Shown: positions 20,194 through 46,226 of the stretch, piece by piece
Layout of the letters: each line of letters starts with the position of its first letter
Numbering within the stretch: position 1 is the first letter of the stretch
IMG/VR virus record: IMGVR_UViG_3300025929_000013
Coordinates: 1 to 64,000 of that record
Length of the DNA stretch: 64,000 nucleotides
From: a virus
Direction: 5' to 3' (one strand)
Program-made: the position numbers and the translations under genes
Notes under the pieces: model-generated
Told to the model about the DNA's origin: nothing
The model's input: only the letters and a program-made list of their open reading frames with translations
Database searches by the model: none

Positions 20194-20214
20194 CCACAAC
20201 ACAAGGAGAACAGC

Positions 20215-20808: not shown

Positions 20809-20912
20809 CGTCCACGGCGGCGCCCCCGGTGAATTTCCCGCCGGGGCGCATCGCTGTCGGCGGCGCGCGATAACCTCGCCACATATTCGAAACTCACAAG
20901 GAGAAGACGCCG

Positions 20913-21224: not shown

Positions 21225-21233
21225 ATCGTCGAC

Positions 21234-21632
21234 ATGCTCCGCAAGGGCAGCTTCACCGAGGTCACCTCGCATCACGTGAACGTGCACGAAGACCTCACGG
21301 CGAAAACGTTCTTCTGGTACGGCTGGGGAGGTCTCGGAGGTCCCACGACCGGCGGCGAGACCGAGGAGTTCATGTGGCGTATGCAGGCGCACTCCGAGGG
21401 CTGGGACGCCGCGCACGATCCGAGCGCCGAGTGGAAGTACAACGTCGACAAGATCCGTGCCTCCGGCAATGAGGGCATCAAGGCCCAGCTCGAAACGGTG
21501 CTGGAGACCTACTACGAGAAGGCCCGAAACAACCCGGACCGGCAGAAGCTCAACAACAGGTACCGCGCGATGATCGGCGCCCTGCGCGCCGCGCTCGACA
21601 CCGCCGCCGCGGACAACGCCAAGGAGGACTGA
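21234..21632 (+). CDS. hypothetical protein
   Basis: ORF track. Confidence 0.65.
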   Translation: MLRKGSFTEVTSHHVNVHEDLTAKTFFWYGWGGLGGPTTGGETEEFMWRMQAHSEGWDAAHDPSAEWKYNVDKIRASGNEGIKAQLETVLETYYEKARNNPDRQKLNNRYRAMIGALRAALDTAAADNAKED

Positions 21633-22054
21633 TGGCCGAGACCGACTGGCCGAGTCTCGACGAGATCGGCCCGAACCCCGATCCGAACCTCTGGTTCATC
21701 AGGGAGATGATCGCGTCCGGGCTGCGCCTGTACTACTCCGAGGCCGACTACGGTGAGGGCAAGCACACCTTCGAGGTCGTCGAGAACATCCACCCCCAGG
21801 ACGGCGCCACCTTCTACCTCGTGCCGGTCAACTATGGCCAGCAGGCGGTCGGCGTCCACTTGGACCGCGCCGAGGCCGAAGCCCAGTACCGTAACGATGT
21901 GCTGGGTCTGCTGGACAACTGCGAGCCCGGCGAGGGCGCAGTCTCCGTGGACGTGAATAACTGGGGCCTGCCGCAGGCCGCGGACGCGAGGCTCCGCAAG
22001 CGCGTGGACCAGATCAACAACCCGGCCAGTAACGAGGAGGACAGCGAGAGCTGA
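21632..22054 (+). CDS. acidic hypothetical protein
   Basis: AGGAGG RBS, TGATG coupling. Confidence 0.7.
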   Translation: MAETDWPSLDEIGPNPDPNLWFIREMIASGLRLYYSEADYGEGKHTFEVVENIHPQDGATFYLVPVNYGQQAVGVHLDRAEAEAQYRNDVLGLLDNCEPGEGAVSVDVNNWGLPQAADARLRKRVDQINNPASNEEDSES

Positions 22055-22527
22055 TGCCCACACGCATTACCTGGAGGAGGGCAAAAACGCGTCGCCCCGA
22101 GTTCAAAGGTCTGGTCGGAGGAGTCACGCTCTTCCAAATCTGGCAAGAACCAGCGGACAAGCGCTGGTCCCTGCTGTCCGACCTCGGGAATTTCCCTGTT
22201 GAAAAACGCACTTTCGACACCGAAGCCGAAGCACGAGACAAGTGTGAGCGCACCCTGTCCTACTTCGTCCAAACGATCGGTGCCAAGTTCGTCACGCGCG
22301 TTCTCACCTGGAGCCCGACCAAGGAAGTCGACGGACAGTTCTTCACCGACGGCTACGTGGGGGACATGGTGTACTTCACACTGCGCACCCTCAACGGCTT
22401 CGGCGGACCGGTGTGGCTCGACGCCAAGATCAAGAAGTACGGCCCCGGTGTCGAGTGCGCGTCCTGGGGCAACGCCAAGAAGCTGGCCGCCGAACGTCTC
22501 AACCCCACTACAGAGAAAGAGTCCTGA
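22054..22527 (+). CDS. hypothetical protein (ITW-start paralog family)
   Basis: TGATG coupling. Confidence 0.65.
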   Translation: MPTRITWRRAKTRRPEFKGLVGGVTLFQIWQEPADKRWSLLSDLGNFPVEKRTFDTEAEARDKCERTLSYFVQTIGAKFVTRVLTWSPTKEVDGQFFTDGYVGDMVYFTLRTLNGFGGPVWLDAKIKKYGPGVECASWGNAKKLAAERLNPTTEKES

Positions 22528-22853
22528 TGGACCCGGTAACCCTGGCCACCGGTGCGGGCCTGCTGCTGTCCGGCGGCGTCCTGGACCGTCTCATACGCCC
22601 GCGTAAACACCAGCGCAAGGCAGTCTGCGGCTGCGAGCACCACCTTGCGCTGCACGCCGACGGCGGCATCGGACCGTGCCAGTATCTGGACGTCATCCAA
22701 GACCTGCGCGACGAACCGATGCTGGACCCGAAGAATCAGGTAATAACCAAGTCCGGAAGCGGCAACGTGCGCACCCACGAGGTCACCGTGATCGTCGACA
22801 AGATCCCGTGTCCGTGCACCGGGTACGTTGCCAAATATTCGCCGACCGGCTGA
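22527..22853 (+). CDS. membrane-anchored Cys/His protein
   Basis: Hydrophobic N-terminus; CGCEHH..H...C..CPC. Confidence 0.65.
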   Translation: MDPVTLATGAGLLLSGGVLDRLIRPRKHQRKAVCGCEHHLALHADGGIGPCQYLDVIQDLRDEPMLDPKNQVITKSGSGNVRTHEVTVIVDKIPCPCTGYVAKYSPTG

Positions 22854-22955
22854 CAGGTCCCCAGCGGCCGTGTAGTGTCCTGGTCGTGGGCGCGGCCTCA
22901 TTGCGTGAGAAACGTCGCCGCGAGGTGAATGGTCGAACCAGTCTCCGCGCCCACC

Positions 22956-22984
22956 TTGCTCCCCGCGCAGGCAGGGGTGGTCCG
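22956..22984 (+). repeat. solitary type I-E-like CRISPR repeat
   Basis: TTGCTCCCCGCGCAGGCAGGGGTGGTCCG closely resembles actinobacterial I-E repeats (GTGCTCCCCGCGCANGCGGGGATGGTCC). Confidence 0.7.
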
Positions 22985-23260
22985 TTCCTGTGAATGGACA
23001 ACATGTTGGCTCCGCATACACGGAGGTGGCGGCCTTTCGGGGCCGAGATTCGCAACTCTGTGTTGTACGTGGGTTGCTCAGCGACAGGGCCTGGGTCTCC
23101 GGATCCGGGCCTTATCGCTTTTCCGAATGCGTGCAGCTCACCCGTTCGGCCTAGCGCGCCAAATCTTCTGGAGTTCGCCGTAGCGCCCCTGGTAGATCTG
23201 CATACGTCACCACGTACGCCGGTCGCCGGGGGCGTTTCGGCATTTCAGGAGGAAACCAGC

Positions 23261-23992
23261 ATGACCAGACTCAGCCAGATCATCGCGGTCGAGAGGGGCG
23301 CGAAGGGCAAGGCCCTGGCCCGGCTCACCGCCGCCCATCACGCCGTCCAGAAGGCGCCCCTGCTCTCCGGGCTCTCGCGCACCTACCAGCCCAAGGACGA
23401 GGACGGCGACACCCTGCCGTCAGAGTCCACGAAGGTGCAGCTCAAGGTCGAGCAGGCGATCGAGGGGATCGTCGAGGACCTCACCCGCCTGTTCGACGTG
23501 ACCGCGACCAAGGACTGGACCAACTGCGTCGCGCGGGCCGACGTGAAGGTCGGCGACACCGTCCTGATCGAGGGCGCGCCGGTGACCTACCTGCTGTTCC
23601 TGGAGAAGCAGCTGGTCGACCTGAACGTCTTCGTGCGCAAGCTGCCGGTACTCGACCCCGCCGAGTCCTGGAGCCACGACCCCACGAGCGACACGTGGAA
23701 GACCGAGCCGGTCCAGACGGTCAAGACCAAGAAGGTCCCGCGCAACCACGTCAAGGCCGAGGCCACCGACCGGCACCCGGCGCAGGTCGAGATCTACCAC
23801 GAGGACATCCAGGTCGGCACCTGGACGACGGTGAAGTTCTCCGGCGCGCTGCCGCAGGTGCGCGTCAACGAGCTGCTGCACCGTGTCGAGACGCTCCAGG
23901 CCGCGGTGAAGTTCGCCCGCGAGGAGGCGAACGGGACGGTGGTCACCGACCAGAAGCCCGGCGAAGTTGTTCTCGACTACCTCTTCAGCTAA
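23261..23992 (+). CDS. conserved hypothetical protein (243 aa) upstream of tRNA-like RNAs
   Basis: AGGAGG RBS; L.QIIAVE.G...RTYQPKDEDG...YLLFLEKQL...LPVLDP...VKFAREEAN family seen in actinobacteria. Confidence 0.85.
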   Translation: MTRLSQIIAVERGAKGKALARLTAAHHAVQKAPLLSGLSRTYQPKDEDGDTLPSESTKVQLKVEQAIEGIVEDLTRLFDVTATKDWTNCVARADVKVGDTVLIEGAPVTYLLFLEKQLVDLNVFVRKLPVLDPAESWSHDPTSDTWKTEPVQTVKTKKVPRNHVKAEATDRHPAQVEIYHEDIQVGTWTTVKFSGALPQVRVNELLHRVETLQAAVKFAREEANGTVVTDQKPGEVVLDYLFS

Positions 23993-24040
23993 GATCGCTC
24001 GCGAGCACAGACTCAAGCTGATCCCTGAGATTCAGCACTG

Positions 24041-24118
24041 CCCGGCGAAAGTGGAGGTTCAACCCCTCCCTTGGGCGCCATCGGGCCCGAGTAGCCCAAT
24101 TGGTAGAGGCACGTCGGG
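24041..24118 (+). ncRNA. circularly permuted tRNA-like module 1 (YrlA/Y-RNA-like topology)
   Basis: T arm GGAGG-TTCAACC-CCTCC, acceptor CTTGGGC/GCCCGAG closed by a loop containing GCCA, then D arm TAGCCCAATTGGTAGAGGC; outer stem CCCGGCG/CGTCGGG. Confidence 0.75.
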
Positions 24119-24179
24119 CGCACGCAGACTCAGATTATTGCTCTAGATTCACGTATTGCAGCCGATCGCCGGATCGACC

Positions 24180-24289
24180 GGCCGTTGACGGTGAATGCCA
24201 GGGTTCCCGGTTCGAGCCCGGGGCCGCGCGCCACTCATGCGCGGCTAGCTCAATAGGCAGAGCACGGTACTTCAGAGTGATCAACGGCC
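24180..24289 (+). ncRNA. circularly permuted tRNA-like module 2
   Basis: T arm CCCGG-TTCGAGC-CCGGG, acceptor GCCGCGC/GCGCGGC with GCCA loop, D arm TAGCTCAATAGGCAGAGC; outer stem GGCCGTTGA/TCAACGGCC. Confidence 0.75.
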
Positions 24290-24375
24290 TTAAACGCCGT
24301 CGGCGTGACCATATAGCTGCTTCGTCAGCTGTCTGCTGAAAACAGATCAGCAAGTGACTGTTAATCACTGACACA

Positions 24376-24408
24376 GGGGCCCCACGGATGGCTACTCCGT
24401 GGGGCTCC
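24376..24408 (+). terminator. hairpin closing the ncRNA cassette
   Basis: GGGGCCCCACGGA...TCCGTGGGGCTCC. Confidence 0.55.
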
Positions 24409-24533
24409 GCCATGTTCGGGTGCGCGCTAGGCCGAACGGGTGACACCGCTACTCTCGCTGGGAACATGTTCGACCGGCTCATAGCATTTATCCCCGAGCG
24501 GCCCGAAGCCGCTTTCACCCCGAGGAGTACTGC

Positions 24534-24989
24534 GTGCTCAAGCGTCCGTTCAAGCCGAGCCGAGCGTACCCACACCCGTGGTGCCCGGTCGCCCATCTCA
24601 TCCCGGCGCCCGCTGCGTTTTTCGCACTCGGACGGCTCATATCCGCCGGGGTCTCCTTCGTCGCGGTCCTCGGCGTGGTGGGGGCGTTCATCGTTCTCGT
24701 CGCGCTCGTCCTGCGGCGGGAGTTCGCCATCCGCGCCGCGGACAAGGAACACGGAATCATCGTGCACGAGGACTGGGCGTTCTGCGCAGCCCTCGCAGAC
24801 ATACTGTTTATCGTCGCGACGTACGCCCTGCTCTGGGCCGTGCTGACAACACCCAAGCCGCTACAACCGGAAACCTGGAGCACCACGGACCTCGTCATCA
24901 GCCTGTTCGCCGGGGGGGTGACCGTCTTCGACTGGTACACGCACCGAAAGGCCGTGCAGCGCGCCCCCATGCCGACGGCCGAGACATGA
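24534..24989 (+). CDS. multi-pass membrane protein
   Basis: GAGGAG RBS; about 4 hydrophobic segments. Confidence 0.7.
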   Translation: MLKRPFKPSRAYPHPWCPVAHLIPAPAAFFALGRLISAGVSFVAVLGVVGAFIVLVALVLRREFAIRAADKEHGIIVHEDWAFCAALADILFIVATYALLWAVLTTPKPLQPETWSTTDLVISLFAGGVTVFDWYTHRKAVQRAPMPTAET

Positions 24990-25279
24990 GCAAGGGCCGC
25001 AAGCTGATCCAGGAGCACCACGGCATGCCGCCCGCGCCGGAAGGCGCCACGGCGCTGCTCATCGTCTCCCCGTCCTACACCCACTGCGGGCACTGCGGCG
25101 GCCGGGCCTTTCCCACCCAGCTCTCACACCAGACGCTCGCCGGACCCGGCAGGTCGGGACGCCCCGGCTGCGGCGCCGTGTTCACCGGCATCACCACCCG
25201 ATACGCCGACATCACCAACGACGATCTGCGGGGCGTGCGCGACGACCTGCCGATCGTGAGGAAGGAACCGCCTCCATGA
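24986..25279 (+). CDS. small Zn-binding protein
   Basis: CGHC...H...GCG; ATGA coupling. Confidence 0.65.
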   Translation: MSKGRKLIQEHHGMPPAPEGATALLIVSPSYTHCGHCGGRAFPTQLSHQTLAGPGRSGRPGCGAVFTGITTRYADITNDDLRGVRDDLPIVRKEPPP

Positions 25280-25698
25280 GCATGATCACCTGGAAGGGCA
25301 ACCTCGCCGTCGATGCCCGTCTGGAAGGCTTCATGGGCACCGCGCGTGTCGCGTCCATCAGACCCGACAACGGGGGCCTGCTCGTCGCATACACGCGCGG
25401 TCTGCAACCCGAGGTCCTCCCGGCCGCGAGCGTGAAGGAGGCCAAGCTCCTGGGCGACGAGTCGATGCGCGATTTCATGCTCGATATCCGCGTACGCCGC
25501 TACACCCCCGACGAGCTCGTGATCGTGCAGGCGATGCTCGACAACAAGGGCGAAGGTGCCGAGGCCCTGTGGATACGCCTGGCCCAGCTCTGGACACAGC
25601 AGCACTTCGACAACCAGAGGCTCATCGCCAACATCAAGGCCCGCCTCGCCGAGCTCCAGGCCGACCTCGCCCGCAGCCCGGAAAACGTGACCGCATGA
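25276..25698 (+). CDS. hypothetical protein (ITW paralog)
   Basis: AAGGA RBS, coupled. Confidence 0.65.
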   Translation: MSMITWKGNLAVDARLEGFMGTARVASIRPDNGGLLVAYTRGLQPEVLPAASVKEAKLLGDESMRDFMLDIRVRRYTPDELVIVQAMLDNKGEGAEALWIRLAQLWTQQHFDNQRLIANIKARLAELQADLARSPENVTA

Positions 25699-26123
25699 GC
25701 CGGATCACCTGGACGCCCGACAAGACCCTGAAGACCCGTGTCGTCGGCACGATCAACGAGGCCGTCGTCGCCCGGATCCTCACGATCGACGGCACGGAAT
25801 ACAGCCTCTGCTATACCAACGGTCTGCACGCCGGATTCGCCGACTTCACGACGTTCGAGGCCGCGCAAGAGGCGGCCGAGGAGCTAATCAACGCCTTCCT
25901 GGAGAAGATCGACGCGGACTTCCTGCCCGACGACGTCGTAGCGCTCATCAAGGACCTGCGCGCGGCCGGAAAGAACATACCGGGGCCCGCGGCGTGCGCG
26001 CGCGGCGAGAACGACCGGATGTGGGGCAGGGCCGTCCAACGCGCGAGCTACGGTACGTACCAGGCGCCCGCAGAACCCTCGGGCCCCATAGCCGACCCTG
26101 CGCCGAAAAAAGACACGCCATGA
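25695..26123 (+). CDS. hypothetical protein (ITW paralog)
   Basis: ATGA coupling. Confidence 0.65.
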   Translation: MSRITWTPDKTLKTRVVGTINEAVVARILTIDGTEYSLCYTNGLHAGFADFTTFEAAQEAAEELINAFLEKIDADFLPDDVVALIKDLRAAGKNIPGPAACARGENDRMWGRAVQRASYGTYQAPAEPSGPIADPAPKKDTP

Positions 26124-26268
26124 GGTGGTGGCCGCGCTGCCGCTACTGCAACAAACCGGTGCGCTGGCGGCACCTGCTGCACATGTTCTGCTACCACGGC
26201 ACGACGACGCACTACAGGTGCGAGCGCAAGATGCGGCGTGACGTGTTCGGCGTCCCCGAAGGCATGAG

Positions 26269-26619
26269 ATGACAGAACCCGCACAACCGCCCGCGCGGCC
26301 TCTCGTGGTCATCCCGATCAAGACCCGCAAGCCCGAGAAGTGGCGCTGGCACGATCTGGAGACCGGCGAGATCTGGCGCTGGCACGACGGGTGCTTCAAA
26401 CGGGAGCCGCCGTGGCCGAGCGCCGACTACGCCACCCAATGGCAGGTGCTGATCGGCTACGCCCAGCAGACCCGCGACGACGGCGAGAAAATCGAGCCCG
26501 CCGAGCTGCTTGAGCTGCTCGTCGAGCTGCGCCGCGAGGCCCTTCGGCCTGTCAAAGAGTGGATGGACGGGGTCGTTGACGGCTCAACGAATACGGATTC
26601 GAGCACGTCGCAGGGCTGA
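26269..26619 (+). CDS. hypothetical protein
   Basis: ORF track, coupled. Confidence 0.65.
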   Translation: MTEPAQPPARPLVVIPIKTRKPEKWRWHDLETGEIWRWHDGCFKREPPWPSADYATQWQVLIGYAQQTRDDGEKIEPAELLELLVELRREALRPVKEWMDGVVDGSTNTDSSTSQG

Positions 26620-26810
26620 GCGTTACTCCGAACGGGTTAACTGCTTCTCAGGCTGTACACGAACATGTTCCAGCGGGTAATGTCTTCCCCGCAGCACCCG
26701 GAAGGAAATCAGCCGGGTGATATGCAACCCGCCTGCGCGCACAGGCCACCATCTGTGTTTCCAGCTCAGGCGGGTCATATTCCTCGCAAGCCCTTGAGAG
26801 GGGGTGCAGC

Positions 26811-29036
26811 ATGCCCATCATCAGCCCTGGAAATCAGGAGTCGAACGCCGACGGCGCCATCGAGCTTCGGATCGCCGCGGATATCGATGAGACGACAGGC
26901 TGCACCTTCTCCGCCACGGGCCTGCCCGACGGGCTCGAATTCGAACGCAAGAAGTTCGAGGATGACGAGGAGCACACCTGGCAGACCGGCCGCATCATCG
27001 GAACTCCCAAGCGCGCCGGGATTTACCAGGTCACGGTCACCGCGATCGACAAGGCCGGAACCAAGACGACCGCGTCCTTCGTGTGGACCGTCTGCGCCAT
27101 GCGGGCGTACAGATTCGCACTGGACCTAAGCGACCCGCAGATCACGGCCATGCAGCAGCACGCGGGCACCGCGCGGTGGGCCTACAACAAGGCGCTGGAA
27201 GCCAAGGTCAACGCCCACAGGGCGTACACCGAACGGCTCAAGGCCCTGCTCGCCTCTGGACTGACGCCACAGCAGGCGAAGGCCCAGATGAAAAAGGAGA
27301 GCGCGGCGCTCAAGGCGCAGACCGCGATCTGGGAGCACCACCGCCAGTGCCTGACCGCCATGAACCTGGGCAGGGCACTGCCCGCCAAAACACCGCGCGG
27401 ACCGCAGGAACTGATCGACGACCTCGCCGCGATCCGGGCGATGGTGCCCGACGGCGTCGACCCCGCGCTGCTCACCCTGGTGGGCAACTGGAAGGGACAG
27501 CCGCCCACGGCGCTGTGCTGGGCGCGCGACCGCCACGAGGCACGCCAGAAGTGGATTAAAACCCACCTCGTCATGGCGCGCCAGACCGTCACGCACCTCA
27601 AGCAGCAACTGTTCGACCTCGGCGACACGATCCCCAACATGATCGAGAACCTGGCGAACTGGCGCAACACACGCGACCTTCCCAAGGAAGAGGGCGGCTC
27701 GCCGTGGTGGCAGGAGGTCAGCTCCTACGTGTTCTCCGGCGGCATGGGCCGCGCGGACGCCGCGTGGAGCAACTGGCTCAAGTCCCTCAGCGGACAGCGC
27801 GCCGGTAAAGCCGTCGGATACCCGCGGTTCAAGAAGCGCGGCCAGTGCGCCGACTCGTTCCCGCTCTTCCACGACGTCACCAATCCATCGATACGCATCG
27901 AGGGATACCGGCACCTGCGCCTGCCGAATATCGGAGAGGTGCGCGTCCACAACTCCGGGCACCGCTCCGGTACACGCAACCGCGTCACCGCGACCAACGC
28001 GAAGGGCGTCAAGCGCACCGTCAGCGGCCAGAGCAAGGGCCGCCTCGGTTCGACCAAGCGCCTGGTGCGCATGATCGAGCGCGGCGACGCGATCGTGCAG
28101 TCCGTGACCGTCGTGCGCGGCGGACACCGCTGGTATGCCAATGTCCTGGTCAAGCTCACCCCTGAGGCGATGCGCCAGCGTGAAATGGTGGCGCGCGCCC
28201 ATCAGAAGGTCTCCAAGAAGCGCGCCCAGGGCCGCGGGAACGTCGGCGTCGAGTGGGGTGTGCGCACCCTGGCCACCCTCTCGAACGGGGAATCGTTCGC
28301 GAACCCCAAGCCGGGCAAGAAGAACCAGCGACGCCTGCGCGTCGCGTCCCAGAAGGTCAGCCGCAAACCGCACAAGCGCGGCCAGCCGATCTCCGCGAAC
28401 CGCGCGGCGGCGATCCGCCAGCTCGGCAGGGTCCACCACGAGATCGCCGAGACGCGCAAGGGCAACCACCACCAGATCTCCGCCGCGATCTCGCTCGGCT
28501 ACCGCGGCGTCGCCGTACGGGGCCTGGACGTGAAGTCCATGACCAAGTCAGCGAAGGGCACGGTCGAAAAGCCCGGCAAGCACGTGAAGGTCAAGTCGAC
28601 CTTCAACCGCGCGGCCCTGGACGCGGCGCCGGGCATGCTGCAAAACCAGATCAGCTACAAGACAACCCAGTACGGCGCGAAATTCGGGGTCGCCCCGAAG
28701 GACCTGCCGTCCAGCCAAACCTGCTCAGCGTGTGGGTGGCGAGATCCAAGCATCCCCCTGACGCAGATGACCTTCCGGTGCGGAAACGTAGAGTGCGGCA
28801 AGAAAATCGACCGCGAGGTCAACGCCGCACGCAACATCCGCAACTCAGTATTTCCCGTGGCCTCAGACAGTGGGGACACGTTAAACGCCTGCGTAGATGG
28901 CATAGGACCCCCGGGCAGCCGAGGGCAGCCGTCGCCAAAACAGGAAGACCCCGAGCCCCATCCCCCACCGGAGGATGGACCCGCGGAGGGTCATTCCGGG
29001 GAAGCGATTCCCCGGCGTTCTCACACCCCGGGCTGA
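26811..29036 (+). CDS. tnpB: TnpB/Cas12-like RNA-guided protein, predicted nuclease-dead, with N-terminal putative Ig (He_PIG-like) domain
   Basis: MRAYRFAL...HAGTARWAYN.AL (IS605 OrfB HTH), GYPRFKK, LRLPNIGEV, RuvC-I VGVEWG, RuvC-II VAVRGL, Zn ribbon CSACG...CGNVECG, RuvC-III DREVNAARNI; N-terminus FSATGLPDGL...GRIIGTP..AG.Y.VTVTA.D. Confidence 0.9.
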   Translation: MPIISPGNQESNADGAIELRIAADIDETTGCTFSATGLPDGLEFERKKFEDDEEHTWQTGRIIGTPKRAGIYQVTVTAIDKAGTKTTASFVWTVCAMRAYRFALDLSDPQITAMQQHAGTARWAYNKALEAKVNAHRAYTERLKALLASGLTPQQAKAQMKKESAALKAQTAIWEHHRQCLTAMNLGRALPAKTPRGPQELIDDLAAIRAMVPDGVDPALLTLVGNWKGQPPTALCWARDRHEARQKWIKTHLVMARQTVTHLKQQLFDLGDTIPNMIENLANWRNTRDLPKEEGGSPWWQEVSSYVFSGGMGRADAAWSNWLKSLSGQRAGKAVGYPRFKKRGQCADSFPLFHDVTNPSIRIEGYRHLRLPNIGEVRVHNSGHRSGTRNRVTATNAKGVKRTVSGQSKGRLGSTKRLVRMIERGDAIVQSVTVVRGGHRWYANVLVKLTPEAMRQREMVARAHQKVSKKRAQGRGNVGVEWGVRTLATLSNGESFANPKPGKKNQRRLRVASQKVSRKPHKRGQPISANRAAAIRQLGRVHHEIAETRKGNHHQISAAISLGYRGVAVRGLDVKSMTKSAKGTVEKPGKHVKVKSTFNRAALDAAPGMLQNQISYKTTQYGAKFGVAPKDLPSSQTCSACGWRDPSIPLTQMTFRCGNVECGKKIDREVNAARNIRNSVFPVASDSGDTLNACVDGIGPPGSRGQPSPKQEDPEPHPPPEDGPAEGHSGEAIPRRSHTPG
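28857..29025 (+). ncRNA. putative omegaRNA/tracr-like scaffold overlapping the 3' end of tnpB
   Basis: Sequence after NAARNI resembles actinobacterial TnpB right-end scaffolds (TTAAACGCC...GGAAGACC...GGGTCA) and ends in the hairpin CCGGGGAA-GCGA-TTCCCCGG (28996-29015). Confidence 0.5.
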
Positions 29037-29080
29037 TTGAAAAATCAACAGTGGATGCGCATACGCGCAGGTCGCACAGT

Positions 29081-30529
29081 GTGCGCCCCGCGGGCGTGTG
29101 GAATGGTCGCACGCTCCACCGGTGGTGAGGGACGTGAGTACGTGCGCCCCGCGGGCGTGTGGAATGGTCCGCACCGTTCCTCGACCACGCATGGGTCGCG
29201 CCGTGCGCCCCGCGGGCGTGTGGAATGGTCGTAGTGCAGTACGGCGAAACAGCCCGCTAGAGCGTGCGCCCCGCGGGCGTGTGGAGCGGTCGACGGCGTC
29301 AGTGCGGTGGCATACATAGTGGCGCTGCGCCCCGCGGACGCGTGAGACGGTCATCGGTAAGCTGACTTCCCAGAGCGCGTGAAATGGGCGCCCCGCGGAG
29401 CGTGGAACGGTCGCAAGGATGCTTACTCGGCTCCTACTGAAGGCCGTGTGCCTTGCGGGCGCGTGAGACGGTCCATCCACCCAGATGACGAGCGAGCAGA
29501 AGCCCAGGTGCGTGGAATGGTTCGGGGACTCCAATTGGTAGGAGCCAACAAGGGTTTCCCCCGCGGGCGCGTGAGACGGTCGTGACGGCAGTCGTTATGG
29601 CACAGAGTCCGCATAGGCGCGTGGGATGGTCTCAGACTCACGTATTACAGCCAGGCCGCGCAGCGGAGTGCGCCCCGCGCACACGTGAGGCGGTTCTGAC
29701 GCAGGGCGTTGAGTCACCCCGTGCACACAGAGAACGGTCCGCCTGGTGGGCGGTGGCATGAGTTGGGAAATTATGTGCCCCGCAGATGCGTGAGACGGTC
29801 GGGTCGAATGTCCATGGTTGTGGCGCAGGTCGCACAGGGTGCGCCCCGCGAGCGCGTGGGACGGTCGTGAAAATACCAGCAGGGCTTTGACCGAGGGCAG
29901 TGCGCCCCGCGGGCGCGAGGAATGGTCGACCCGTCTGGGCTGCTGTCCGTGGACAGCAGCGTGCAGCCCGCGGGCGCGTGGGTCGGTCTGAGTCAGGAGG
30001 CCACGATGGACGCTGTCGGCGGTGCGCCCCGCGGGCACGTGGGTCGGTCGTTTGAGTCCGAAGGAACCGCCCGATGAACGTCGTGCGCCCCGCGAGCGCG
30101 TGGGTCGGTCGGATCTACATGGACCAACCGTACAGACGGAGCGGTGCGCCCCGTGGGCGCGTGGAACGGTCGTGGCCCGGTCGCGTAGGCGGCGCAGGTC
30201 GCACAGGGTGCGCCCCGCGGGCGCGAGAAATGGTCGGTTACGTACGACAGGTCACCCATCAACAGCAGGTGCGCCCCGCGGGCGCGAGAAATGGTCGTGG
30301 TGTAGGGTGCCCGCACTCGAACACTGCGAGTGCACCCCGCGGGCGCGAGAAATGGTCGGAAGAGCTCTCGGTTGATACTGTCCCCCTGCGTCTGCGCACC
30401 TCGGGTATGCGCGGGACGGTCAGAGTGCCAGTGAAAGTTCTCGTCAACGTTCTGATGCTCCCCGCGGGCATGTGGAACGGTCCAGGTATGCTGCTGGTCA
30501 GATACACCCCGTGCACACCGGGAACGGTC
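29081..30529 (+). CRISPR. CRISPR array with type I-E-derived 28-bp repeat (consensus about GTGCGCCCCGCGGGCGYGTGGAAYGGTC), about 25 repeats, mostly 33-nt spacers
   Basis: Repeats start at 29081, 29142, 29203, 29264, 29325, 29386, 29446, 29554, 29668, 29773, 29839, 29900, 29961, 30022, 30083, 30144, 30208, 30269, 30330, 30394, 30455 plus degenerate or truncated copies; 61-bp period; unique spacers. Confidence 0.93.
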
Positions 30530-30558
30530 TGGTGCATTACCAGTCAAGCAGTACGCCG

Positions 30559-31329
30559 GTGCGCGCAGAAAACGGTCGCCCTGGAAAGCTGCGGTGTGCG
30601 CGGAACGGTCGGCCCTGCTCTCTCAGTCGCGCAGAACGGTCAGCCTGGTACATGTACCACCGCGCTAGGGAACGGTCGGGAGCAGCGCGTGCCCGGGAAC
30701 GGTCCATGTCCATGATGTCGGTGAGATGAAGGACGGTCAGGTCCTATCGGGCGGGCTGAGAACGGTCGGAAAAGAATGTACGGGCGCAGCGGTGGATGAT
30801 GCTCCTCGCTCATCCACCGGCGAACGGTCTCCCCCGAAGTGTGCGGTCTACATGCCGCGGATGCGCAGAACGGTCCGCTTCCCGAGAGAAAGCGCAGAAC
30901 GGTCAAGGCTGGTTAGCTCCGGGCGCGAGAACGGTCTGGGCTCAGAATAAGGGTGCGCAGAACGGTCCAGTGTGAATGACGGTCAAGTGTCTGCCAGGGG
31001 CCAGCATGTGAAGAACGGTCATACGCCTGAAGAACGGTCATACGCCTTTGAGTACGAACGCATCCCAGGGGCGACGGTCGATGACCATGGCCTGCGGTGA
31101 ACGGTCCGGAGAGACCCCGGTGCCGAGCGGTCCAAGAAGTGGTGAACGGTCCAGGTCTGTGTCGGGCGAACGGTCCTTGAGCCATTCGAACCCGGCGCCG
31201 GGAGAACGGTCATCCAAGTATGCCGAGCACGGTCTGACAGTCACAGCTACGCGCGTAGAACGGCCTAGTTGTCGGCGGGGCAAGAGAACGGTCCAGGTCT
31301 CCCGAGATCATCAAGGCGCTACAATGGTC
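30559..31329 (+). repeat. array of about 26 mini-units retaining only the repeat 3' end (GAACGGTC) separated by short unique sequences
   Basis: ACGGTC-type motifs end at 30577, 30610, 30641, 30677, 30704, 30738, 30767, 30829, 30875, 30904, 30936, 30967, 30984, 31020, 31039, 31079, 31106, 31151, 31175, 31211, 31234, 31293 and others. Confidence 0.85.
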
Positions 31330-31395
31330 ATGGTGCGGGGCATGGTGCCCGGGGAGATCCCGTGGACGGGTTCATGAAACACCCTGCACCCTCGA

Positions 31396-31470
31396 TGCGG
31401 GGTAGCGCAGCTCGGTAGCGCGCTGGGCTCATATCCCAGAGGTCGCTCGGTTCAAATCCGGCCCCCGCTA
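31396..31470 (+). tRNA. tRNA-Met (CAT), initiator-type
   Basis: Cloverleaf; anticodon arm CTGGG-CTCATAT-CCCAG with three G-C pairs; 1:72 mismatch; TTCAAAT T loop; no encoded CCA. Confidence 0.88.
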
Positions 31471-31477
31471 CAGCAAC

Positions 31478-31512
31478 AGCCCCCTCCTATCACCGGGTAG
31501 GAGGGGGCTTCT
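31478..31512 (+). terminator. terminator hairpin between convergent genes
   Basis: AGCCCCCTCCTA...TAGGAGGGGGCT. Confidence 0.75.
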
Positions 31513-31518
31513 CTGCGT

Positions 31519-31734
31519 TTACGGCTCGACGCCGGTCAGAGCCTGCACCTGGGCGACCGTGATGCCCTCACGACTCAGCGCCTTGAGCCGCGCGATCCGC
31601 AGCTCGTCACGCACGCGCTCCTTCTTGAGCCGCTGGAACTCCACCATCGACCGCAGCATCATCGGCAGGCAGACCGGGAGCGCTACGAGGAACAGGCTCA
31701 GGCAGACGAGCAGCATCACGGTGGGCCAAGACAT
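31519..31734 (-). CDS. small membrane protein
   Basis: TM N-terminus MSWPTVMLLVCLSLFLVALPV plus charged helix. Confidence 0.55.
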   Translation of the reverse strand: MSWPTVMLLVCLSLFLVALPVCLPMMLRSMVEFQRLKKERVRDELRIARLKALSREGITVAQVQALTGVEP

Positions 31735-31839
31735 ACAGCAAGTGTAGTGACGAACACAGGCGCCGGGGAGAGTGGGCCGAACGGATGACCCTGACAGAGA
31801 CAGTGGAGATCCACGAGACGGTCCGCCTAGCGTGTGATC

Positions 31840-32256
31840 ATGGATATTACACAGGCCCAGACCTGGGCAGACATCGCCGAGATCGAATTTCCCAAGGAGC
31901 TGAAGCTCATGGGGCTCCCGCCGCGGGAGCGCCCGAGGCCCGACCTTCCAGCGGTGCTGGAGACGGTCGACCTGATCTTCAAGAACCGCGAGAAGGAGCC
32001 CGACTGGACCACCACGGTTCACCTCGCTGCGTGGCTCGCTCCGAAGTTCGGTATGACGAGCAGGGATTCCGAGATCCAGGAAGCGCTTGCCAAGATCCGC
32101 TCACCTGAGCGGGACGGTGCGTTCACCGCGATGGCGATGGAGACGATGCTGAAGATTCACTTCGGCTACCACCTCATCGCGTTCATCCGGGAGAACGGGT
32201 TCGCAGACCTGCGCGCCTTGATCGAAGCCACGGAGCTCGACCCGACAACCCCCTGA
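31840..32256 (+). CDS. hypothetical protein
   Basis: ORF track; followed by a hairpin. Confidence 0.65.
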   Translation: MDITQAQTWADIAEIEFPKELKLMGLPPRERPRPDLPAVLETVDLIFKNREKEPDWTTTVHLAAWLAPKFGMTSRDSEIQEALAKIRSPERDGAFTAMAMETMLKIHFGYHLIAFIRENGFADLRALIEATELDPTTP

Positions 32257-32667
32257 TAGCAGCAAGAGGCCCCCGTCCTCTGGTGTGCGGCGGGGGCTTC
32301 TCTGCGTTTGCGGCGAGCCTCCTGGCATCGCCACTTCGGTAGCTGCCATAGTTCAGCTTCATGCCAAGCCTTCCACCGGAGTCCACGCAAGACCGGCTCG
32401 TCCGCCGTATAAAGTCCGCCACTGGCGTTGACTGCACGATCTTCGACGGGCGCACCGTGGCACTTGACGAGCGTGAGCTCTACCATCTCCTGTCCGTGCT
32501 GGCCTGTGATGCCGAAGATCCCAAGAGCGCCGCCCTACTGGCAAAACTGCTGCCCATGCCACAAGCTACAGGTCAACGGCCTGGGGATGTGTGTGTGTTT
32601 GACACCACATCGCGAACGCGGTGTACTCTCAAACACGTACATCCGCGATCTAGGGAGAGCGTGTGGC

Positions 32668-34356
32668 ATGCCCCCTGTAGATACACCGCTAAGAAGACCA
32701 GCTCGATGCAAGCGCGCCATCATCTACGTACGTGTATCCAAGGCACGCGAGGTGATGTACAGCCCCGAGCAGCAGATCATGCGCTGCGAGCAGTACGCCA
32801 AGCAGCACAACATCCAGATCGTCGACATCGTGCGGGACCTTAACCTCAGCGGCCGGACCTTCGAGAAGCGCAAGGTCATCGAGATCATCGAGCGCATCCA
32901 GAACGGTGAGGCCGAGATCGTCCTGGTGTGGAAGTACAGCCGCTTCGGACGATCGAAACTGAAGAACGCGGTGCACATCGTCCTGGTGGAAAAGGCTGGC
33001 GGCCAAGTGATCAGTGCCACCGAGGGTGGCAATGAGAAGACCAACGTCGGACGCCTGAACCGCAACATCATCATGTCTGTGGACGAGTTCTACTCCGGCG
33101 TGATGGGCGACACGTGGAAGGACACCCACGAGCGGCGTCGCAACAGCGGTCTCCCGCACACCGGTAAACCCCGTCTGGGGTACATGCGCTGTCCGAAGTG
33201 CGAACGAGACGAGGAAAACCCGACCAAGTACAAACCCTGCGAGTGCGGCGGCGTTTTCGTCCCCGATCCTGAGCGCGCGTGGGCGGTCAAGGAGGTATAC
33301 ACGCGTTTCACCGAAGGTGAGGGGCTACGCAAGGTCATTGCCGATGTAGCCTCCCGCGGAGTCACCACGACTGTTGACGGGGCGCCTCTTACGTGGGGGC
33401 ACTGGACCACCGCGCTCGACTCCGGATTCGCGGCCGGTTGGCTGCGCGCAAAGAGCGAGGAGGCCAAGGAGGAGAACCCCAATGGGCGGCGCATCGACGA
33501 TTACGACGTCTGGGTTAAAGGTAAGCACGATGCGCTGATCTCCGAGGAAATCTGGCAAAAATACAGGAAGCGCCGCATGGCGCGTGAGCGACTCCCCCCG
33601 AAGGCTCGCGAGCCCAAGCACTCCCTAAGTGGTTTCATCCGGTGTGGCGGTCGCAATTCCGATGGGGAACTATGCCTGCGCGTGATGACTGCGGCGAGGG
33701 GTGGCCGTAAAGGCGAGAAATACGTAGTTTTTCGGTGTCCCGTCCACGCCGACACCGGCGCATGTACCGGAAGCTCGATCGGCCTGATCACGACCGAGAA
33801 GATCGTACGCCGGTGGATCCGAGACAACGCGAAGGATGACGGTCGACGCCAGCGTGCACTCGACGAGATGCTTACGTCCGAACAAAACGCAGGCGAGCTT
33901 AGGCATGCACGCGCCCGCGTGGCGCAGCTAGATGAGAAGCGAACGAAACTCGCAAGCGGTTGGGCCTCTGGGCTTCTGAAAGATGATCTCTACCGAACGC
34001 TCTCGGAAGAGCTCGACGTCGAACTTGATGTGGCGCATGCCACTGTGGCGAAGTTGGAAAGGGCAACCACCCGCATCGAGCTGGGCCCAGAGGTTTTCCT
34101 GCCCATCGCGGAGCAATGGGATGGCCTTCCACCCGCAGCTAAAAACGAAGCTCTGCAACATGTGGTCGACCACATTATTTCGATTCCGATGCCCGGACGC
34201 GCCCGTACTATGGCACGCGTTGTCGGACTTGGTGAGGCGTATGACTATGCATTGCCATCCCGCGGTGTATCGCGTGTCCGGGCGCGGCGCAATGCCTCTC
34301 TCGCCAAGACGCACCAGAACGCGTCCCAATCCGGAGTGACGCCAGGCGAGGAGTAG
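32668..34356 (+). CDS. large serine recombinase (integrase)
   Basis: IIYVRVS catalytic Ser, D..LSG, SRFGRS, recombinase domain, Zn ribbon (LSGFIRCG...C...RC...C), coiled coil. Confidence 0.93.
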   Translation: MPPVDTPLRRPARCKRAIIYVRVSKAREVMYSPEQQIMRCEQYAKQHNIQIVDIVRDLNLSGRTFEKRKVIEIIERIQNGEAEIVLVWKYSRFGRSKLKNAVHIVLVEKAGGQVISATEGGNEKTNVGRLNRNIIMSVDEFYSGVMGDTWKDTHERRRNSGLPHTGKPRLGYMRCPKCERDEENPTKYKPCECGGVFVPDPERAWAVKEVYTRFTEGEGLRKVIADVASRGVTTTVDGAPLTWGHWTTALDSGFAAGWLRAKSEEAKEENPNGRRIDDYDVWVKGKHDALISEEIWQKYRKRRMARERLPPKAREPKHSLSGFIRCGGRNSDGELCLRVMTAARGGRKGEKYVVFRCPVHADTGACTGSSIGLITTEKIVRRWIRDNAKDDGRRQRALDEMLTSEQNAGELRHARARVAQLDEKRTKLASGWASGLLKDDLYRTLSEELDVELDVAHATVAKLERATTRIELGPEVFLPIAEQWDGLPPAAKNEALQHVVDHIISIPMPGRARTMARVVGLGEAYDYALPSRGVSRVRARRNASLAKTHQNASQSGVTPGEE

Positions 34357-34370
34357 AAGGTCTCGATCAG

Positions 34371-34409
34371 GCGCCCGGACTTATCCCCGTCGGTGGGTCC
34401 GGGCGCTTC
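34371..34409 (+). terminator. hairpin after the integrase
   Basis: GCGCCCGGAC...GTCCGGGCGC followed by TT. Confidence 0.6.
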
Positions 34410-34700
34410 GTCGTAGGTCAGCTCGTCCATCGCCCTCTGCCTTCGTCGCGGTCTGCGACGTTCCCCTGGGGGCGGGGCGATTCGTTGTCCATCCTGCACT
34501 GCGTCGGCGCGTCAAAAAAAGCGTTCTGAGCTGTGGGTTTGATGGGTTGACATGTGGGTGCGGGGTTCGGGGGATAGGGCGTGAGCTGCGGCGCGCTGGG
34601 GTGCAGGGTCACCCGGATGGGCTAGTGCCCTGTTGACAGGGCGTCAGGCGGCTCAAGATCGGGTGTGCGCTATCCGAATTTTCTGCTCAGGAAGAGAACC

Positions 34701-36467
34701 ATGACCGATGTGGATACACGCGACCCTGCGATCGTCGAGCTGGCCCGGAAATTGTTGACGGGGGCGGCGAAGATCAAGGGGGCGTCCGTCTACCGGTTCG
34801 ACCTTCAGGGTTTCGTCTCGGACGGCGCAGCGGCGTTTCCGGACCAGCCCGGCGATGTCCTGCTGGACGAGAGGGAGGGCGTCGGGAAGGCGATCAAGCG
34901 GCTGATGGTGCTGGCGGTGCGCCGCGGGACGCAGGAGATCCAGGACGTCGCGACGGTGTCGTGCGTGCTGCGCGTGCCGCACAAGACGGGTGTGTGGCTG
35001 CTGCATGCGGCGACCGGGGAGCCGTGGACGGTGGAGCTGGCGCAGCAGCTGCTGGAGGCGTGCTGTGTGCGTCCGGATCTGGCCATGGACATCACCCAGG
35101 CGGTCCCCTTCGGCCGGGTGGGCGTTATCCACGGGCGCGGGGACCTGGAACGGATGACGACGGTCGCCTCGGGGTTCCACCGGACGATCGGAATCCTGGC
35201 GCACGCCCCGACGCGCGTGGTGGTGCGCCAGCACGAGCGGCTGCTTTCGCCGTACGCGATGCGGTACCGGGGGATGCTGTGCATCGCGGTGCACGACGAT
35301 CCTTCGGGGCGGGTGCGGAAATATTACGGCGAGCAGACCTTCACCGACCTGTTCAATAGAACCCACCACGTGGCGATGCCACCGCTGGGCGGGATGCGGG
35401 TGATGCTGCCGCTGGAGTATCCGCGCTCTGCGATCCCGCCGGATCTGCCAGTCACGCTGGACAAGCGGGAGGCGGCGGATGACAAGACGGTCGCCGCGTG
35501 GCTGGAGCGCTGCGCCGCGCTGATGCTGCATCCGGCGCATGCGCCGGACCCTGATGCGCACAAAATCGTCAAGGACTTCGAGCCGCGATTCGCGCGGGAC
35601 ATCGCCGCGGACACGACGGTCTCGGTGTTCCAGGAGCTGGTGGACACCCGGCAGCGGGAGGCGGAGCTGCGGGACAAGCTGAAGGGTTTCATCGCGGCGG
35701 GCGACGAGCTGCGCGCGCATGCGCACCAGACGCAGGAGATGTGGGAGGCGGAGCAGCGCAAGAACGCCGAGAAGGACAGGGAGATACGCGGCCTGCGCGC
35801 CGAGCTGGCCACGACGCGCGCGCAGCTTGCCGAGGCGCGGGCGGCAGACGGCGGCGGGCAGGAGCACGTGGCCGCGGTGACCGGGGAGCGGGACCGGGCG
35901 CGCGCCCTGCTGGCCGAGCGCGTGGAGGATCTGGAGGTCCTGCGCGAGACGCTGACGACGCTCAAGACCCGTCCGGAGGCGGTGGTGCCGCGCGAGTGGC
36001 GCCAGCTGTTCCCGTTCGCGGGGATCTTCACGTACGTGGACGTGCCGGACTGGGCGGTCAGACCGGCGTACGGGGTGCTTGACCGGGGCCAGGAGTCGCT
36101 GGGGTGGCTGGTGCGCGCGTGGACGGTGCTCACGAAGTTGGACGAGTACGCGGCGGCGAAGATCGAGGGCGGCGCGGGCGGGGTGTGCGCGAATTTCCGC
36201 ACGTATGTGACCGAGTTCCCGGCGAGCGGGGTCACGCCGCGCCATGTGGTGCTGGGGGAGTCCGAGGCCGTGAGCAAGCATCCTCAGCTGCGCGGGATGC
36301 GCACGTTCGACACTCCGATGGGGCCGCGGTTCTTCTCGGAGCACGTGGCGATCGGGTCGGGGGCTCCTCCGGCGCCGCGCCTGTACTACTACGACGCGGT
36401 GCGGGAGATCGGGAAGGTCCTGGTGGCTTACATCGGGCCGCATTTGAAGAACACGCTGACGAATTAG
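34701..36467 (+). CDS. coiled-coil protein with C-terminal RelE-like domain
   Basis: Central coiled coil; C-terminus FSEHVAIG...PRLYYYD...VLVAYIGPHLKNTLTN. Confidence 0.6.
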   Translation: MTDVDTRDPAIVELARKLLTGAAKIKGASVYRFDLQGFVSDGAAAFPDQPGDVLLDEREGVGKAIKRLMVLAVRRGTQEIQDVATVSCVLRVPHKTGVWLLHAATGEPWTVELAQQLLEACCVRPDLAMDITQAVPFGRVGVIHGRGDLERMTTVASGFHRTIGILAHAPTRVVVRQHERLLSPYAMRYRGMLCIAVHDDPSGRVRKYYGEQTFTDLFNRTHHVAMPPLGGMRVMLPLEYPRSAIPPDLPVTLDKREAADDKTVAAWLERCAALMLHPAHAPDPDAHKIVKDFEPRFARDIAADTTVSVFQELVDTRQREAELRDKLKGFIAAGDELRAHAHQTQEMWEAEQRKNAEKDREIRGLRAELATTRAQLAEARAADGGGQEHVAAVTGERDRARALLAERVEDLEVLRETLTTLKTRPEAVVPREWRQLFPFAGIFTYVDVPDWAVRPAYGVLDRGQESLGWLVRAWTVLTKLDEYAAAKIEGGAGGVCANFRTYVTEFPASGVTPRHVVLGESEAVSKHPQLRGMRTFDTPMGPRFFSEHVAIGSGAPPAPRLYYYDAVREIGKVLVAYIGPHLKNTLTN

Positions 36468-36475
36468 GAAGTGCG

Positions 36476-36670
36476 ATGGGCTCTGGTCATTGGATCCACA
36501 TCGCCGTGGCGGTGGGCAGCGCGGCGATCAGCGGTGGGTGCACGGCGTATTTCGTGCGCCGTGGCAGCCGCAGGTATGTCAACCGCGAGCATTTCAGCTC
36601 GCCGTTCGTTGTCGAGGAGGACGTCGAGGGGGACGACGACGAACCGAGGGGCGCGCACCGTCATGTATGA
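36476..36670 (+). CDS. small membrane protein
   Basis: Hydrophobic N-terminus, acidic tail. Confidence 0.45.
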   Translation: MGSGHWIHIAVAVGSAAISGGCTAYFVRRGSRRYVNREHFSSPFVVEEDVEGDDDEPRGAHRHV

Positions 36671-36744
36671 GGTGTGCCCGCGGCGGGGTTGGGAATATAC
36701 GCTGCGGCGCTGGCAGCCGCACCGACACGCGTGAGGGGTTTTCC

Positions 36745-37059
36745 GTGAGCGACAGGCCGGTCAGCTACACCGTGCACCCCTACCTGGAGCGCAACTCCGG
36801 CAGCCCCTATGTGCTGCCGGAGTTCGAGCGCATCGTGTCGGGGCATCCGCTCGACCGCTGTGAGACGGAGGCGGGGGTGGTGCGGCTGGTGCGCTATACC
36901 CCGCCGGGTTGCGAGGTGTTCCGTTTCGCGGTGCACACGGTGCTGCGCGACGGTCGGGCCACGGCGACCAGTTATAGGCTGCTGGCCGGGGCGCGGGTGG
37001 ATTATGACGGCGCTGTGGTGGTGCTGGGTGGGCAGGGGGCGCAGGCGCAGGAGGCCTGA
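36745..37059 (+). CDS. hypothetical protein
   Basis: GAGGGG RBS. Confidence 0.55.
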   Translation: MSDRPVSYTVHPYLERNSGSPYVLPEFERIVSGHPLDRCETEAGVVRLVRYTPPGCEVFRFAVHTVLRDGRATATSYRLLAGARVDYDGAVVVLGGQGAQAQEA

Positions 37060-37209
37060 CGTGCGTCAGCCCCGCGTCACGATTCTCCGCGCGAGAGACA
37101 TTTGATGCGGGGCTGGTGCGGGCACCCGTCCCCGGGACGGTGCTTGGCGGCCAGCCTAGTCAGGCGTGCGGGATTCTTGCGGCGTTCGCGGATTTTTCCC
37201 CGGTGCGGC

Positions 37210-46224: not shown

Positions 46225-46226
46225 GA

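Follow-up and report, generated by a model that had tools for sequence, protein, structure and literature searches.

A phage-borne type V CRISPR locus, probably of the Cas12n lineage, with a conserved RuvC substitution: a putative RNA-guided DNA binder

Introduction

What could a phage do with a TnpB-like protein in which all three RuvC catalytic residues are replaced and whose gene is followed by a CRISPR array? The question is raised by positions 26,811 to 31,329 of a 64,000-nucleotide stretch of DNA (hereafter the window), which constitutes the first 64 kb of the IMG/VR virus record IMGVR_UViG_3300025929_000013 (108,847 bp, CheckV 100% complete). An initial annotation of the window had interpreted the locus as the product of an independent transition from TnpB to CRISPR inside a phage, with a nuclease-dead effector. 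The analyses presented here suggest a different origin. The window probably carries a type V CRISPR locus that resides on a phage and belongs to the Cas12n (V-N) lineage; its effector would bind DNA under RNA guidance without cutting it and would act against rival mobile elements.

That the element is a phage was corroborated by its completeness and by its genes, which encode tail fibre/spike proteins, an endolysin, DNA polymerase I, a UvsX-like recombinase and a large serine integrase; the integrase indicates a temperate phage. At 47-48% identity the polymerase resembles those of Streptomyces phages with genomes of 112-116 kb, among them Alone3 and BRock, and the host is therefore probably a high-GC actinomycete.

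The effector is a Cas12n-like protein with a substituted RuvC triad

The effector gene is an open reading frame (ORF) of 741 codons at 26811..29036 on the + strand that stops 44 bp before the first repeat of the array. Its translation and its Pfam, NCBIfam and PDB matches upheld the annotated TnpB-like gene, of which the phage genome holds a single copy. The GC content at third codon positions (GC3) stays between 0.85 and 0.89 up to residue ~680, including the N-terminal 96 codons. Pfam recognised a He_PIG immunoglobulin (Ig) domain (residues 5-94), HTH_OrfB_IS605 (98-135), OrfB_IS605 (467-580) and a Cas12f1-like TNB zinc ribbon (608-676). The NCBIfam model guided_TnpB scored 180 bits (cut-off 100), while IS607_TnpB scored 207 bits, under its cut-off of 350. 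The YPRFKK and NAARNI motifs and the four zinc-ribbon cysteines (C638, C641, C657 and C662) are kept, in agreement with the annotation that the helix-turn-helix (HTH), PRFKK, zinc ribbon and NAARNI are intact. The helical insertion that had been described after the HTH is real; it adds ~110 aa to REC (residues ~163-275) and also occurs in some relatives, including a group of ~590-aa Streptomyces TnpBs. A basic insertion at residues 383-412 was poorly modelled.

The AlphaFold (AF2) model of the protein reached a predicted local distance difference test score (pLDDT) of 79 and a predicted template modelling score of 0.70, and its top Foldseek matches were structures of TnpB, Cas12f, Cas12m (Cas12m2) and RdCas12n. 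Residues 685-741 form a disordered tail (pLDDT ~30). At the sequence level, the best PDB match was RdCas12n (9J09, E 7e-56, residues 292-680); next came ISDra2 TnpB (E ~6e-23), together with an AI-designed RNA-guided nuclease that scored much the same. The Ig-like domain is fused in frame (26811..27098, +; PF05345, E 2e-11), with a GC3 of 0.85 and a predicted beta-sandwich at residues 10-96 of the AF2 model, and no second copy of it was found in the phage genome. The same fusion is present in three other proteins (P0003, P0004 and P0005), two of which have no Met at the start of the TnpB part, and the domain is thus conserved within one sub-branch of the clade described below.

The catalytic positions were assigned by residue-by-residue HMMER alignment to RdCas12n (9J09) and ISDra2 TnpB (8H1J). 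The Asp of RuvC-I is replaced by Glu (E481, codon 28251..28253, +), VGVEWG standing opposite GVDLG in RdCas12n and GVDVG in ISDra2 TnpB. The Glu of RuvC-II is replaced by Arg (R570, 28518..28520, +), with VAVRGL opposite FEDL in RdCas12n and the Glu of ISDra2 TnpB, and the Asp of RuvC-III by Glu (E669, 28815..28817, +), where DREVNAA aligns with DRDLNAA and DRDENAA. The alignments to these two proteins and to actinobacterial homologs thus bore out the annotated alteration of all three positions. Among 19 aligned homologs, one group carried Glu-Arg-Glu (E/R/E), while the nine remaining actinobacterial relatives had Asp at RuvC-I and, in eight of the nine, the full Asp-Glu-Asp (D/E/D). The sampled cellular relatives all had Asp at RuvC-I as well, and D/E/D wherever all three motifs were found.

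The altered proteins were monophyletic in a quick tree (16 proteins, SH-like approximate likelihood ratio test, SH-aLRT, 100) and in a careful one (17 proteins including that of locus L001, ultrafast bootstrap 100, SH-aLRT 100). These trees, built from the clade and its actinobacterial relatives, placed the clade on a long stem, sister to active actinobacterial proteins that include one from Actinomadura craniellae. Throughout the 16 aligned members, the three substitutions and more than 100 other positions were invariant at an average column identity of 54%. A single clade with full support and an invariant triad argues that the E/R/E change arose once and was then kept, and the altered triad thus reads as a conserved change of single origin rather than as decay. 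A profile search of 1.84 billion representative proteins returned three or four E/R/E representatives, of which one is a 290-aa fragment and another is frameshifted; the clade is thus small. Elsewhere in the same radiation (P0104, P0108, P0111, P0127, P0133 and P0141), RuvC is substituted in other ways, such as N/Q/G or a His or Thr at RuvC-III, which means that changes to the site occurred there more than once. In a near-identical genome (96,690-bp contig), the protein P0002 is identical to the effector over residues 1-530 and then continues in another frame to 770 aa, which represents either a frameshifted allele or an assembly error in that sister genome.

Arg in place of the metal-binding Glu argues that the two-metal centre is lost, and the RuvC site would then be inactive. 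A salt bridge in place of the metals may be the reason why Glu-Arg-Glu is so strictly conserved.

CRISPR arrays accompany related loci

Two related loci, L001 and L002, were retrieved from scans of IMG/VR, metagenomes and GTDB genomes with the two most conserved motifs of the clade. L001 lies on a 202-kb viral contig, and also on a 193-kb metagenome contig, and encodes a 595-aa clade member that is 46% identical to the window effector and contains VGVEWG and DREVN. Its array of eight 29-nt repeats with a 61-bp period begins 35 bp after the effector gene and is followed on the 3' side by Cas1e (TIGR03638, 322 bits, cut-off 216) and Cas2e (TIGR01873, 73 bits, cut-off 33). The presence of both genes directly beside a 29-nt/61-bp array indicates that the arrays are derived from type I-E, as had been annotated. 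L002, from an Actinomycetota metagenome-assembled genome, consists of an active-type D/E/D relative followed by three repeats that end in GGAACGGTC, like those of the window; it branches outside the altered clade and yet has a mini-array. Homologs do, then, also adjoin arrays.

Since the L001 protein belongs to the other main sub-branch of the altered clade, the association with arrays spans the clade as far as DNA was covered. Arrays in both sub-branches and the array at the active L002 argue that the window effector is one member of an existing CRISPR-associated lineage, and by its sequence it appears to be such a member rather than the outcome of a private transition. The proposal of an independent TnpB-to-CRISPR transition was accordingly not supported: apart from these arrays, the closest solved relative of the effector is Cas12n, with which it shares the type of C-terminal tail and a tracrRNA-like scaffold (tracrRNA, trans-activating CRISPR RNA).

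Searches beyond these loci returned little. The clade profile did not find the altered clade in 401 Actinomycetota genomes, where the only close relative was that of the L002 genome, and none of five loci of cellular relatives from these genomes that were checked for repeats had an array. The locus and array had no match in a phage collection (megablast and blastn) nor in a plasmid collection, tblastn of the effector against isolated phages found only ordinary TnpBs (identity up to 28%), and the repeat pattern gave single chance matches in IMG/VR. A SNF2-family helicase is encoded upstream in L001 (2863-5238), and several large ORFs around that locus have no Pfam match.

The initial annotation had also stated that no tnpA, cas1, cas2, cas6 or Cascade genes flank the effector. 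The absence of cas1 held for the whole 109-kb phage genome, in which no Cas1 was detectable, and no small IS607/IS605 transposase occurs among the neighbours of the effector gene. For Cas2, Cas6e and Cascade the statement stands only as the lack of a Pfam or PHROG match among ORFs adjacent to the locus, no models for them having been searched; likewise Cas3, Cascade and Cas6e had no Pfam match among the ORFs beside the window locus and L001, where no dedicated search was made.

A candidate tracrRNA-like scaffold lies under the disordered tail

GC3 drops to 0.63 in the last 62 codons of the effector gene, and the DNA under the disordered tail is conserved among the window, L001 and L002. This drop, the low pLDDT and the conservation delimit a candidate tracrRNA-like scaffold at 28861..29036 (+). 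Within it, an 8-bp hairpin with a GNRA loop (CCGGGGAA GCGA TTCCCCGG; 28996..29015, +) is present at all three loci, and RNAalifold retained it with compensatory changes in the stem.

Comparison of the loci revealed a candidate anti-repeat, CGTTCTCACAC, directly after the hairpin (29016..29026, +). Within it, CGTTCTC exactly complements, in antiparallel orientation, the GAGAACG of the mini-unit consensus described below, and its duplex with the block-1 repeat is predicted at -15.9 kcal/mol. The segment after the hairpin covaries with the repeat: CGTTCTC in the window, CTTCCC in L001 and CGTTCC in L002 complement GGGAACG/GAGAACG, GGGAAG and GGAACG, respectively, at the 3' ends of the corresponding repeats. 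The three loci together suggest that this segment acts as the anti-repeat. A genome-wide search for RNA duplexes was uninformative in GC-rich DNA, Rfam matched neither the array nor the scaffold region, even at E <= 1, and a promoter scan gave nothing above chance.

The array grades into mini-units that retain the end of the repeat

The leader occupies the 44 bp between the effector stop and the first repeat (29037..29080, +). It ends in a 15-nt motif, GCGCAGGTCGCACAG (29065-29079), that recurs at 29823-29837 and 30192-30206, so that each block of the array is preceded by it; a similar motif precedes the first repeat of L001. The array itself (29081..30529, +) contains ~25 repeat-spacer units in three blocks (29081-29352, 29838-30171 and 30207-30357), each with its own repeat variant. 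Repeats are 28-29 nt long (consensus GTGCGCCCCGCGGGCGCGTGGAACGGTC) and spacers ~32 nt, giving a 61-bp period inside the blocks. The repeat shares its CCCCGCG core and orientation with the Escherichia coli repeat. Degenerate or truncated repeats follow two of the three blocks, and block 2 runs straight into the third leader motif. The annotated array of about 25 repeats with a 61-bp period was thus confirmed, with the addition of degenerate stretches between blocks and of 25 further mini-units.

These mini-units (30560..31329, +) consist of the consensus GAGAACGGTC and ~10-28 unique nucleotides at a median spacing of 31 nt. Only the last 8-10 nt of the repeat are kept, GAGAACGGTC complements the candidate anti-repeat, and the sequence between these handles is unique. 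On the + strand of the 109-kb genome, GAACGGTC occurs 22 times, always within 29405-31293, and it occurs once on the other strand; a control pattern occurred once per strand. The concentration of 22 copies in 1.9 kb, against one elsewhere, in a tail that is otherwise unique argues for selection on the handle. Neutral erosion would not spare exactly the part that pairs with the candidate anti-repeat, and the mini-units would therefore be, or recently have been, under selection as guide modules. The tail also contains a 19-nt perfect tandem duplication (TGAAGAACGGTCATACGCC twice, 31009-31047). A bolder proposal, which we consider unlikely, is that the mini-units are working guide genes for which the 8-10-nt handle is enough. 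They would be former repeat-spacer units that selection has condensed into a dense, hard-wired battery of ~30-nt guide modules, placed behind an array of I-E type that is still growing; the Cas1-Cas2 of a host type I-E system would add spacers to this array in trans, and the Ig domain would tether the effector to a protein or the virion so that it acts at infection.

Presence in RNA libraries and variation among populations

The stretch was found whole in a microbial-fuel-cell metagenome, its likely source, and in part in rhizosphere, soil and groundwater runs, among them rhizosphere metatranscriptomes. In three of the latter, compared over 20000-38000, contigs were 100% identical to the window over parts of the effector ORF and over the tail and array start; the mini-unit region appeared in one run (X2). 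One RNA contig starts at 28861 (at 28865 in the third run), reaches 29080, is joined there to 29142 and continues to ~29248, and the contigs of two runs begin exactly at 28861, the start of the candidate scaffold. Transcription of the scaffold and of the beginning of the array is thereby weakly hinted at. Such contigs show no RNA ends, strand or level, and neither uncovered parts (for example 31419-36226) nor the higher depth of the 28861-29248 contig can be used to rank expression.

The skip of 61 nt (29080-29142), seen in all three rhizosphere runs, means that these populations are without the leader-proximal repeat-spacer unit of the window. The difference represents either a recent gain at the leader end or a loss between identical repeats. 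A contig of run X2 covers 30834-31111 at 100% identity and has one copy fewer of the 19-nt tandem unit at 31009, from which it follows that the mini-unit tail changes by slippage.

Comparison with known systems

Cas12n (type V-N, formerly V-U4 or C2c9) is an actinobacterial CRISPR nuclease close to TnpB; its C-terminal tail is disordered and dispensable, and its tracrRNA overlaps this part of the ORF (PMC12216341; 10.64898/2026.03.27.714800). The window effector resembles RdCas12n (9J09/9UDI) and AcCas12n in its TnpB-like core (WED, REC, RuvC and zinc-ribbon TNB) with an expanded REC, in the array directly downstream of the gene (window, L001 and L002), and in a predicted disordered tail whose coding DNA holds the tracrRNA-like scaffold and candidate anti-repeat. 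The lineage is actinobacterial as well, P0019 of Actinomadura craniellae being 45% identical. In contrast, Cas12n has a D/E/D RuvC, recognises an A-rich 5' PAM (AAN) and cuts double-stranded DNA, whereas the window effector is E/R/E, falls in a separate long-stemmed clade, is phage-borne and has the N-terminal Ig domain, the extra insertion at 383-412 and an array that grades into mini-units. Particular to the window copy are the Ig fusion, the REC insertion, the 383-412 insertion, the lack of a detectable cas1 and the three-block array with its mini-unit tail.

The best functional analogy is Cas12m, another compact effector of type V whose RuvC is non-canonical. It works without a tracrRNA, and its CRISPR RNA (crRNA) is processed by RuvC. 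The window effector differs from Cas12m in sequence: no Cas12m chain appeared at E <= 1 in the PDB sequence search, and the match is one of fold only. Cas12m2 (type V-M, PDB 8HHL) silences by tight DNA binding, not by cleavage (PMC10442227).

TldRs are TnpB derivatives borne by temperate phages, with a deteriorated RuvC triad, that repress transcription by RNA-guided binding (10.1101/2023.11.30.569447). Like them, the window effector is TnpB-like, has conserved RuvC substitutions that are expected to be inactivating and has no tnpA among its neighbours. Unlike them, it has ~50 guide units instead of one adjacent guide RNA, with no match found in the phage's own genome or in 401 actinobacterial genomes, and an intact zinc-finger/RuvC C-terminus, which TldRs often lack. 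TldR relatives have no Cas1-Cas2, and the clades known from the literature are associated with fliC or oppF in Enterobacteriaceae and Enterococcus. Replaced catalytic residues are also found in large branches of the CRISPR-associated TnpB derivatives V-U24, V-U43 and V-U44 (PMC10691335). The window clade may or may not be among the branches V-U6 to V-U45 of that survey.

With type I-E the locus shares the 28-29-nt repeats, ~32-nt spacers and 61-bp period, and the related L001 has Cas1e-Cas2e after its array; the locus differs in its type V effector and in that Cas1 was not found in this phage. The single copy, the IS607_TnpB score below cut-off, the altered triad and an array instead of a single guide speak against a transposon TnpB of the IS607/IS605 kind. 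In the literature collection searched, we found no paper on a Cas12n-like clade that combines E/R/E, type I-E adaptation genes and phage residence, the altered V-U branches of PMC10691335 being uncompared.

Proposed mechanism and competing explanations

We propose that the effector gene, the tracrRNA-like scaffold in its 3' end, the leader and the array would be read in one direction. Each repeat would pair through its 3' end (GGAAYGGTC, replaced by GAGAACGGTC in mini-units) with the anti-repeat just past the GNRA hairpin, and the sequence after each repeat would serve as the guide. Because RuvC changed from Asp-Glu-Asp to Glu-Arg-Glu across the clade, the complex is expected to hold its DNA uncut: it would find complementary DNA, stay on it without the usual cut and block transcription or replication of the target, as Cas12m and TldR do. 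Precedents of binding without cutting are Cas12m2 (PMC10442227), TldR (10.1101/2023.11.30.569447) and the altered V-U branches (PMC10691335). By analogy with relatives that have Cas1e-Cas2e, and given many diverse spacers, competing phages or plasmids in the lysogen would be the most likely targets, ahead of a fixed host regulon. Since the phage has no detectable cas1, its array would be either frozen or served in trans by a type I-E system of the host.

Several observations weigh against this proposal. It is built on sequences and models. Asp-to-Glu changes keep a carboxylate at two of the three catalytic positions, and Altae-Tran et al. (PMC10691335) warned that conserved altered catalytic sites may stay active. 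The association with arrays was seen at both of the clade loci whose DNA was read, in a clade of 17 proteins. The anti-repeat is supported by three loci, and one non-cognate duplex scored better than the cognate one. Contigs from RNA libraries are no proof of transcription, as DNA can occur in such libraries. Finally, no credible spacer target was found in the phage's own genome, in phage and plasmid collections or in 401 large actinobacterial genomes.

Of the alternatives, the one that survives best, unlikely as we consider it, is that Glu-Arg-Glu forms a rearranged working site, with which the effector would cut or nick DNA, or RuvC would only process pre-crRNA, in a conventional nuclease defence against rivals. 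Two of the three changes are conservative, and strict invariance throughout the clade fits functional constraint better than an irrelevant site. Conserved altered arrangements may retain activity (PMC10691335), and Cas12m2 keeps RNA processing with a non-canonical triad (PMC10442227). However, Arg stands where RuvC-II has its metal-binding Glu, and its guanidinium should keep Mg2+ out. The invariance would be explained equally well by a salt bridge among Glu, Arg and Glu that holds a pocket without metal in shape, and no new conserved acidic residue particular to the clade was seen near the motifs.

The spacers bear on the second alternative, a TldR-like regulator whose fixed guides would repress promoters of the host or the phage during lysogeny and not foreign elements. 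The phage is temperate, has no detectable adaptation gene of its own and carries a mini-unit tail that resembles a hard-wired guide set, and TldRs, which are carried by temperate phages, act as repressors of host genes (10.1101/2023.11.30.569447). In the genome of the phage itself, however, the guides had only chance matches of 11-15 nt. The array had 23 weak matches in the 401 genomes of a large-genome actinobacterial genus, which may not be that of the host, none of them a protospacer or an array; they cross repeat-spacer borders or fall in GC-rich genes. The 18-nt seeds of three leader-proximal spacers had four matches in IMG/VR that ended at 18-20 nt, approximately the chance level. The Cas1e-Cas2e kept in L001 fits open-ended spacer capture, and the leader-proximal unit varies between populations. 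We therefore regard a fixed regulator as improbable, and binding directed at rival elements as the better account.

That the locus is a decaying remnant, in which the gene of a dead insertion sequence adjoins an orphan array under erosion and neither serves a function today, is very improbable. A large share of the array is degenerate, cas1 is missing and P0002 of the near-identical genome shifts frame after residue 530. Nevertheless, the reading frame is unbroken and its codon bias normal, the clade shows no variation in the triad or in more than 100 further positions, the scaffold hairpin is conserved, the 8-nt handle is exact in 22 copies whose flanks have diverged, and the locus is present in RNA libraries.

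Equally hard to credit is that the effector guides the neighbouring serine integrase, or a partner recruited by the Ig domain, to RNA-specified sites as Cas12k does in CRISPR-associated transposons, since large serine integrases are known to need no guide, no integrase occurs among the nine ORFs that were scanned in the 10 kb around the L001 homolog, and no guide matches the tRNA gene or its surroundings. What speaks for it is the order of effector, array with truncated units, tRNA-Met and large serine integrase within 3.4 kb, the reported homing of Cas12k elements to tRNA sites through truncated repeat-spacer units (10.1101/2021.02.06.429022), and the inactivated TnpBs beside phage integrases noted in PMC10691335.

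If the proposed DNA binding without cleavage is correct, the few type V effectors that bind and do not cut (Cas12k, Cas12m, Cas12c, TldR and sigma-associated dCas12f) would gain a branch that is carried by phages and equipped with arrays, and in one lineage of this branch a transposon-derived effector would be joined to a type I-E adaptation module and array. Mini-units with 8-10 nt of repeat constitute a natural test of the minimal repeat of a crRNA. A compact, tracrRNA-guided and by its residues naturally non-cutting DNA binder from high-GC organisms could be of use in tools for gene repression in actinomycetes, and the locus bears on how temperate phages may counter rivals without DNA damage.

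Genomic surroundings of the locus

Directly after the array, ARAGORN and Rfam identified a tRNA-Met (CAT) gene at 31396..31471 (+), and beyond it lies a strong hairpin that ends in a T-rich tail (31480-31520). The tRNA gene and the hairpin may be part of the transcription unit of the array. The large serine integrase (32428..34356, +; phrog_95 integrase, E 4e-78; Pfam Resolvase and Recombinase), which also gave a weak, sub-cut-off match to Zn_ribbon_recom, belongs to the context of the locus.

Upstream, a 332-aa protein encoded at 22994-23992 matched DUF7873 very strongly (364 bits), and RNA-library contigs cover 23738-24008. A gene resembling queuine tRNA-ribosyltransferase lies at 44749-46260 on the - strand (phrog_887, E 4e-41); in phages, such genes are frequent markers of 7-deazaguanine DNA modification. 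The exonuclease at 53110-54243 (-; phrog_2506), near the UvsX-like recombinase, has a weaker match to a PHROG labelled 'CRISPR/Cas system associated' and is probably a recombination nuclease outside the CRISPR locus.

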